DNA of 3,480 nt from Escherichia coli. GTDB taxonomy: Bacteria; Pseudomonadota; Gammaproteobacteria; Enterobacterales; Enterobacteriaceae. Made by a program: the position numbers and the translations under genes. Location of the stretch: assembly GCF_003334255.1 (NCBI RefSeq), contig NZ_QOWU01000120.1; one strand, given 5' to 3'. Shown piece after piece: positions 422 to 1,595 of the stretch (the first letter of the stretch is position 1; every line of letters starts with the position of its first letter). The notes beneath the pieces were generated by a model. That model saw nothing but the letters and a program-made list of their open reading frames with translations, was not told the DNA's origin and did not search any database.

Positions 422-1595
422 CTTCCCCGTTTTGCCGATATTTTTCAGCAGGGTAACCGCTGGCTTAACTGGCTGGAGAAACAGCCGGAAGGTTCAGTGC
501 GTCCGGTGGTGACTGAGTCAGTGACAAAAATCATGGCATGCGGGACCAGGCTGATGGGCTACACGCAATGGTGCTGTTCGTCACCGGACTGTTGCCACAC
601 CAAAAAGGTCTGCTTCCGGTGTAAAAGCCGCTCCTGTCCGCACTGCGGAGTGAAGGCCGGCACACAGTGGATACAGTATCTGCTGAGTCTGGTCCCCGAC
701 TGCCCGTGGCAGCATATTGTGTTCACGCTTCCGTGCCAGTACTGGCCCCTGGTGTTCCACAACAGGTGGTTACTGGCAGAGATGAGCCGCATTGCTGCGG
801 ATGTGATACTGGAAATCTGCCGCCAGGCAGATGTGGAGCCGGGGATATTCACGGTAATCCACACATGGGGACGAGACCAGCAGTGGCATCCGCACATTCA
901 CCTGTCGACAACAGCCGGAGGCGTGACGTCAGGTCACTCCTGGAAAAACCTTCATTTTTACGCCCGTAAGGTGATGAGCATGTGGCGTTACCGGATAACG
1001 CGGCTACTGTCCCGGAAATACCCGGAGCAGGTAATACCGGATGAACTGGCAGTGGAAGGAAACAGCAAACGGGACTGGAATCGCTTCCTGGACAGTCATT
1101 ACCGGCGGGGCTGGAATGTCAACGTATCCAGGGTGATGGATAACGCCACACATGTGTCAGTGTACTCTGGCTCTTACCTGAAAAAGCCGCCGGTGCCGAT
1201 GAGCCGTCTGGAGCACTATGCAGGTCAGGATGAAATTGGTCTGCGTTACAACAGCCACCGGACAAAACGGGAAGAATACCTGGTGATGAGTGGCGATGAG
1301 TTCATGGAAAGGTTCTCCTGGCATGTAGCACCGTATGGTGAGGTACTACGGTTTCCTGAGTCCGGTGAAGCGCCGGTTACTGGAAGAGGTGGTGTACGCC
1401 ATAACGGAGACAGTGAGAAAAACAGCGATACAAATCAGGTGGAGAGGGATGTATCAGAGGTTACTGAAGGTTGACCCGCTGAAGTACATTCTGTGCGGAA
1501 GTCAGATGCGTTTTACGGGGCTGAAGCGGGGTTACCGACTGGCAGAGCTGGTCCTGATACATGAGCGACTGGCACGACAGCAGGTGTGCGGCTGA
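422..1595 (+). pseudogene. tnpA: IS91-family transposase (zinc-binding N-terminal domain plus HUH/YxxxY rolling-circle domain), missing its first codons and frameshifted near 1343-1346
   Basis: Frame 2 (track ORF 497..1474, open back to 410) has a Cys/His cluster (CCSSPDCCH...CFRCKSRSCPHCG), an HUH motif (WHPHIHL, 887-901) and YSGSYLKKPP (Y-x-x-x-Y, about 1163-1177). The expected continuation MVRYYGFLSPVKRRLLEEV... is in a different frame (track ORF 1335..1595). The frame-2 tail after 1346 looks like junk. Confidence 0.75.

Follow-up and report, generated by a model that had tools for sequence, protein, structure and literature searches.

The region from position 422 to 1783 of the window, which is the whole stretch of 3,480 nucleotides that was analysed, is almost certainly an IS91 isoform whose tnpA gene, coding for a rolling-circle transposase of the HUH, two-tyrosine type, has been inactivated by a spontaneous 11-bp deletion between codons 304 and 309. 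The features of this region and its borders are given below by position, strand and content.

1-76, no strand assigned: last 76 bp of an IS30 copy, ending ...GATTGAATCTACA, inside an IS3-family element (positions 1-77 are unmatched in the otherwise identical G8 plasmid)
77-421, minus strand: end of the IS3-family element, which interrupts the IS91 tnpA (translation; annotation in the G8 and G6/7 plasmids)
422-425, plus strand: right copy of the CTTC target duplication, equal to tnpA codon 2 and the first base of codon 3 (record L002, 2700-2800 and 3990-4040, compared with the uninterrupted IS91 in L001, 1440-1520)
422-1330, plus strand: IS91 tnpA codons 2-304 in frame 2, with the zinc-binding domain, HUH motif and catalytic tyrosines (94-98% nucleotide identity to intact IS91 copies; NF033538)
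497-1474, plus strand: frame-2 open reading frame (ORF) of 325 amino acids, overlapping the frame-3 ORF (ORF list)
1330-1331, plus strand: deletion junction (junction string present in records L002, L005 and L006, absent from the undeleted L001, L003 and L004)
1331-1474, plus strand: out-of-frame tail of the frame-2 reading (PYGEVLRFPESGEAPV...VTEG) with its stop at 1472-1474 (ORF list, translation)
1332-1595, plus strand: IS91 tnpA codons 309-395 and the stop codon, now in frame 3 (translation; NF033538 positions 299-355)
1335-1595, plus strand: frame-3 ORF of 86 amino acids, starting with the ATG at 1335-1337 (ORF list)
1596-1783, plus strand: non-coding right (origin) end of IS91, ending ...TTAAATTCCTATCGAT (beyond 1783-1787, three other IS91 copies are no longer similar)
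1784-1787, plus strand: CAAG target tetranucleotide beside the IS91 right end (end comparison among copies)

Two reading frames of one transposase gene

Translation of the three forward frames between positions 1250 and 1420 confirmed the frame switch that the earlier note had placed at 1320-1360, with frame 2 reading ...FSWHVAPYG and frame 3 reading MVRYYGFLSPVKRR. Across this stretch, frame 2 contains ...EFMERFSWHVAPYGEVLRFPESGEAPV... and ...EFMERFSWHVAPYGEVLRF..., and frame 3 contains ...HRMVRYYGFLSPVKRRLLEEVVYAITETVR and ...MVRYYGFLSPVKRRLLEE.... The NCBIfam IS91 transposase model NF033538, whose cut-off is 125 bits, scores 238 bits against the frame-2 product, which covers profile positions 2-296, and aligns with the frame-3 ORF over positions 299-355. 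Since the profile is split between the two frames in this way, they represent adjacent parts of one protein, and the similarity reflects homology rather than chance. Intact IS91 TnpA is encoded by one ORF of 395 amino acids, as annotated in the records of the relatives. Its HUH motif HPHIH (residues 157-161, window 887-901) and catalytic tyrosine motif YSGSY (residues 249-253, window 1163-1177) are read in frame 2 of the window, and VRYYGFLS (residues 311-318, window 1338-1361) is read in frame 3; the claim that an IS91-family transposase gene is frameshifted between its HUH/YxxxY core and VRYYGFLS was thus borne out.

The 11-bp deletion and its occurrence

The earlier note had implied a one-base indel and had proposed to locate it by alignment with intact transposases. 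Alignment of the window with the IS91 copies of p15ODTXV, pEC404/03-1 and CP113093, all three of which are undeleted at this site, placed the indel at 1330/1331 and revealed that 11 bp, GATAAGGGGTT, are missing there, which refutes a lesion of one base. This gap, at alignment columns 944-954, is the single indel between the tnpA of the window and the intact copies; positions 422-1640 of the window comprise 1,219 bases, and the same stretch of intact IS91 copies has 1,230. The ancestral sequence TGG CAT GTA GCA GAT AAG GGG TTC CGT ATG GTG AGG TAC TAC is translated as WHVADKGFRMVRYY, and the window reads TGG CAT GTA GCA/CCG TAT GG at the junction, so that codons D305, K306 and G307 and two bases of F308 are lost. 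The loss of 11 bp leads to a net +1 shift of the reading frame. The deleted sequence is non-repetitive and its loss is no homopolymer slip, and direct reading of the alignment found neither microhomology nor short repeats flanking the deletion, which presumably arose spontaneously.

A megablast search of positions 400-1640 against the PLSDB plasmids returned about 1,600 records. Using an exact 39-mer across the deletion as a probe, the identical junction was found in 5 of 5,426 complete E. coli genomes, and the undeleted form is present in about 877 records. The five carriers are plasmids of E. coli G8, G6/7, STEC17-183, DETEC-S792 and S1-CAM-02-A, and the junction also occurs in pECOED of strain ED1a; these six finished plasmids come from different strains and countries. 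Furthermore, eight independently assembled human-gut metagenome contigs contain the junction. The 39-mer had no match among genomes taken one per species, so the allele is absent from the species representatives; plasmids of E. coli and gut metagenomes were its sole sources. The NCBI annotation pipeline PGAP labels the locus 'IS91 family transposase; frameshifted'; the frameshift is thus already part of the public annotation and is not new.

Position of the break within TnpA

In an intact relative of 96% identity, Pfam recognizes the zinc-binding domain Zn_Tnp_IS91 at residues 17-104 (E=2e-18) and the catalytic domain Y2_Tnp at residues 142-321 (E=8e-39). As the deletion falls within Y2_Tnp, the break lies inside the catalytic domain rather than at a border of core and tail. 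VRYYGFLS, which had been taken for a separate C-terminal segment, is instead part of this domain and contains a predicted β-strand. In an AlphaFold2 model of intact IS91 TnpA (L001:1498-2682), which was built on the alignment of the relatives and has a mean pLDDT of 93.9 and a pTM of 0.91, residues 305-308 form a loop between a helix (292-301) and this β-strand (311-315, VRYYG).

Conservation was assessed in a set of 69 family members, consisting of IS91 TnpA and 68 full-length relatives with 23-38% identity to it, which were drawn from 1.84 billion cluster representatives with one sequence per 50%-identity cluster. H159 and H161, Y253, G315 and C363 are each conserved in 68/69 members, Y249, H302 and C360 in 67/69 and R312 in 62/69. 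Everything from R312 on is out of frame in the window, including G315 and the C360-x-x-C363 pair. If the 11 bp and the ATG are restored, the TnpA of the window differs from IS91 TnpA at 15 of 395 positions.

The deletion between codons 304 and 309, with its +1 shift, would leave a product that, when made from the normal start, consists of residues 1-304 and 47 unrelated residues before translation stops. Such a protein would lack the last predicted β-strand of the catalytic domain, R312, G315 and the cysteine pair. Both catalytic tyrosines, Y249 and Y253, are kept in the window and their domain is truncated. According to a statement in PMC5714925, which cites Mendiola and de la Cruz 1992, the two tyrosines are needed for the activity of IS91 TnpA in vivo, and mutation of either one abolishes it. 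Judging from the sequence, transposase activity has presumably been lost.

Sequence searches of solved structures with IS91 TnpA gave only marginal matches to parvovirus NS1 nuclease domains (E about 0.01), and a Foldseek comparison of the AlphaFold model with the PDB gave no match with an E-value below 0.1. The weak, non-significant Foldseek list includes other HUH enzymes, namely AAV Rep, the relaxases TraI/TrwC, and IS200-type and REP-associated transposases. Neither the sequence search nor the Foldseek search turned up a solved IS91-family transposase structure.

Nested insertions at the 5' end of tnpA

Similarity to IS91 begins at position 422 of the window, which corresponds to codon 2 of tnpA. 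What the earlier note had called a 5' truncation is really the insertion of an IS3-family element. The G8 and G6/7 plasmids, which are identical to the window over 78-3480, carry a 1.2-kb IS3-family element before codon 2 of tnpA, just after the ATG, annotated as 'IS3 family transposase, programmed frameshift' (WP_085947772.1); beyond it follow the ATG of tnpA, ORF121 (WP_000124098.1) and the left end of IS91. The orfA gene of the element starts with an ATG at 349-347 and reads leftwards, and the terminal repeat ...CCACTACA is located at 414-421. The junctions are GATGCTTC/TGTAGTGG and CCACTACA/CTTCCCCG, and the insertion, with its 4-bp CTTC target duplication, is a clean transposition. The previous suggestion that this copy has no capacity to produce a working transposase is supported by both the 11-bp deletion and the displaced ATG.

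The IS3-family element of the window is in turn interrupted at 76/77 by the end of an IS30 copy. Positions 1-420 are 100% identical to many E. coli records, in which the features are labelled 'IS30-like element IS30 family transposase' or 'transposase'. This 420-bp composite is found as an exact, 100% identical match in many E. coli chromosomes and plasmids, and the interrupted IS3-family element is thus itself widespread. The Rfam family isrC, an Hfq-binding sRNA (RF01387), matches window 231-353 on the minus strand with 150 bits; the match includes the beginning of the IS3-family orfA and reaches a few bases beyond its ATG on the upstream side, and the isrC family apparently overlaps this IS sequence.

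The element with WP_085947772.1 is also present in another IS91 copy, that of pTW10828_115.1k (record L016, 1498-3946), where it follows about 879 nt of tnpA. A recurrent insertion hot spot for the IS3-family element was considered and rejected, as the insertion in pTW10828_115.1k is at a different tnpA site. The IS91 copies on these plasmids are repeatedly interrupted.

Order of events

The carriers of the deletion form a graded series:

pSTEC17_183-b and contigs L008, L014 and L015: 11-bp deletion only
L013: deletion, T44R and C360Y
Window, G8, G6/7, L010 and L012: deletion, T44R, C360Y and A247S

Beside A247S, the window and G8 also bear the IS3-family insertion. pSTEC17_183-b carries the deletion, has an uninterrupted 5' end and retains the ancestral T44, A247 and C360, which places the deletion before the insertion. 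C360Y, a change of TGC to TAC at window 1485-1487 by which the nearly invariant cysteine of the C360-x-x-C363 pair is lost, is absent from the copies with the deletion only and is therefore later than the deletion. Six of the seven lineage-specific tnpA substitutions are non-synonymous, an excess that, on the small number of seven substitutions, would be the pattern expected in the absence of selection.

The history of the copy begins with the 11-bp deletion, after which three more amino-acid substitutions, including C360Y, accumulated in the dead gene. The IS3-family element was then inserted right after the ATG, so that start codon and promoter no longer adjoin the coding sequence. The insertion of IS30 into the IS3-family element was the last step, taken in the window's own lineage.

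Alternative explanations for the frame break

Besides the deletion, several other readings of the frame break were weighed. An error of sequencing or assembly in an otherwise intact gene had been offered as an alternative from the start, and frameshifts in finished assemblies are indeed errors at times; however, an 11-bp loss of non-repetitive sequence is not the signature of a homopolymer slip, and the recurrence of the identical 39-mer in six finished plasmids and eight metagenome contigs led to the rejection of an artefact, which has hardly any probability left. The same degree of disbelief applies to the insertion of a single T at 1334. Positions 1331-1338 read CCGTATGG, with the T directly before the ATG at 1335-1337, and its removal joins the frames arithmetically; the T had thus been correctly recognized as the +1 offset of the two frames. 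It is not the causal mutation, however, since all intact copies have it as the last base of CGT in the ancestral CGT ATG (R309-M310), and the real difference is the 11 bp missing upstream of it. Removal of the T restores the frame, but the four lost residues DKGF are still absent. It is also highly implausible that the overlapping frames are functional, be it by programmed +1 ribosomal frameshifting or as separate N- and C-terminal proteins. Both ORFs are open and the second one starts with an ATG, but all intact relatives and the undeleted E. coli records have one continuous frame at this site, and a +1 shift would still yield a protein without DKGF. Direct reading of positions 1320-1340 found no slippery heptamer, and there is no in-frame stop at the junction. 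In addition, the start codon was lost to the IS insertion, and the second frame carries C360Y.

The term 'non-autonomous', which the earlier note had used for the element, is accurate in the sense of defective, as an intact ORF, a start codon of its own and a contiguous left end are missing. That intact IS91 copies still mobilise the deleted copy in trans, and that it spreads by this route, is very unlikely, if somewhat less so than the readings above. In favour of it, the element keeps an intact right (origin) end with its CAAG flank, and the human-gut contig L009 (UEPH01005953, 79-1439; coverage 4.3) combines the same 11-bp deletion with another 3' part: past window position ~1457, its 3' end is of a divergent IS91-family type and is followed by another right flank (CGAT/GGAC...). 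However, L009 and pSTEC17_183-b have a common left flank, and the divergence starts only after about 1457; this fits a recombinant between IS91 copies by homologous recombination, or a chimeric low-coverage assembly, better than transposition, and L009 was therefore set aside as evidence of transposition in trans. Moreover, all other copies are located at the same mcbF junction, and, in the window, at least one inserted IS stands between the left end and the remainder of the element. There is likewise only a slight chance that the deleted IS91, with its intact origin end, can still be moved or recombined in trans by intact IS91 copies, or that the 304-residue N-terminal product, with its zinc domain and HUH/YxxxY motifs, modulates IS91 transposition in lineages that keep the ATG, such as that of pSTEC17_183-b; the only hint for either is the mosaic contig L009. 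The spontaneous 11-bp deletion in an IS91 tnpA is thus the preferred explanation.

Relatives and annotation

The window copy has the features of the IS91 family, namely a score of 238 bits in the curated model, the metal-binding HUH motif, the two-tyrosine YxxxY motif, and the typical right end with its CAAG/GAAC flank. It does not contain a single uninterrupted transposase ORF with its own start codon and is therefore a pseudogene remnant of an IS91-family member rather than an active member. The left (terminus) end is not contiguous with it either: CGAGTAGGCAGCC... and ORF121 are found beyond the IS3-family element in the related plasmids. A programmed frameshift, as judged by the relatives and by direct reading for a slippery heptamer at 1320-1340, is not a property of this site.

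IS91 itself, known from an E. coli haemolysin plasmid and encoding a 395-amino-acid HUH Y2 rolling-circle TnpA, has 94-95% nucleotide identity to window 422-1783. Both share H159/H161, Y249/Y253, the right-end sequence, the CAAG/GAAC flank and, in the related plasmids, the order of ORF121 followed by tnpA. In contrast to IS91, the window copy has the 11-bp deletion at codons 305-308, the 15 amino-acid differences including C360Y, and the IS3-family insertion after the ATG. The closest relatives are the pseudogene JFX43_RS25580 of pSTEC17_183-b and the copies on the plasmids G6/7, G8, DETEC-S792, S1-CAM-02-A and pECOED, which have the same junction and the same mcbF'-mcbG right flank; they are 99.7-100% identical to the window over the shared part (422-3480 or 78-3480). 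pSTEC17_183-b differs from the window in lacking the IS3-family insertion and in its three ancestral residues, whereas G8 and G6/7 lack the IS30 insertion of positions 1-76. Other E. coli plasmids, for example CP113093, p2010C_5028-3, pVTB585v-1 and pTW10828_115.1k, contain IS91 pseudogenes, too, with independent lesions: a 1-bp insertion in one copy, other frameshifts, and the IS3-family element at a different tnpA site.

The copy has little significance beyond its correct annotation, being an ordinary decaying IS91 pseudogene among nested insertion sequences on an E. coli plasmid. Its proper name is an IS91 pseudogene that has lost 11 bp and has additionally been interrupted by an IS3-family element and by IS30; to call it a single-base frameshift or a 5'-truncated gene would be wrong. 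How a dead insertion sequence decays can be seen in a small, clean example from the nested insertions together with the graded plasmid series, which date the deletion before the IS insertions. Of more biological relevance is a neighbour, the orphan microcin B17 immunity gene mcbG, which was parted from its operon by the IS91 insertion.

Right end of IS91 and the adjacent mcb genes

The right end of IS91 joins its flank as ...CCTATCGAT/CAAG at 1783/1784. The tetranucleotide after the right end is CAAG in the window and in records L003 and L004, and GAAC in L001. IS91 prefers CAAG or GAAC as target, and the flank of the window matches this preference. The mcb operon is intact in p2010C_5028-3, and comparison with it shows that IS91 has interrupted the microcin B17 gene mcbF at approximately codon 52. 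The ORF at window 1719-2357, to which related plasmids give the label 'AAA family ATPase', is chimeric: its first ~22 codons derive from the IS91 right end, and its remainder is mcbF from about codon 53. It lacks the Walker A segment (GENGAGKT) of intact McbF, and is unlikely to encode a working ABC ATPase. Downstream of it, mcbG (2361-2924) is intact and encodes the pentapeptide-repeat microcin B17 immunity protein of 187 amino acids, without mcbA-E. A paper from 2024 (PMC10926693) described E. coli that are resistant to MccB17 and possess just mcbG and an orthologue of mcbF, flanked by a transposase; this is probably the same arrangement as the mcbF'-mcbG of the window.

Window 2926-3183 encodes a short C-terminal fragment of an IS66-family transposase, which covers positions 356-385 of the 387 of profile NF033517; the annotation of related plasmids calls it an incomplete transposase. 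Next to the IS91 left end, related plasmids (record L005, 1700-2577) encode a 170-amino-acid 'colicin-like pore-forming protein' and carry a colicin E1-family immunity gene. At this place, one would expect the upstream portion of the mcb operon, and the presence of colicin genes instead suggests a rearrangement or a one-ended transposition at the left end of IS91.
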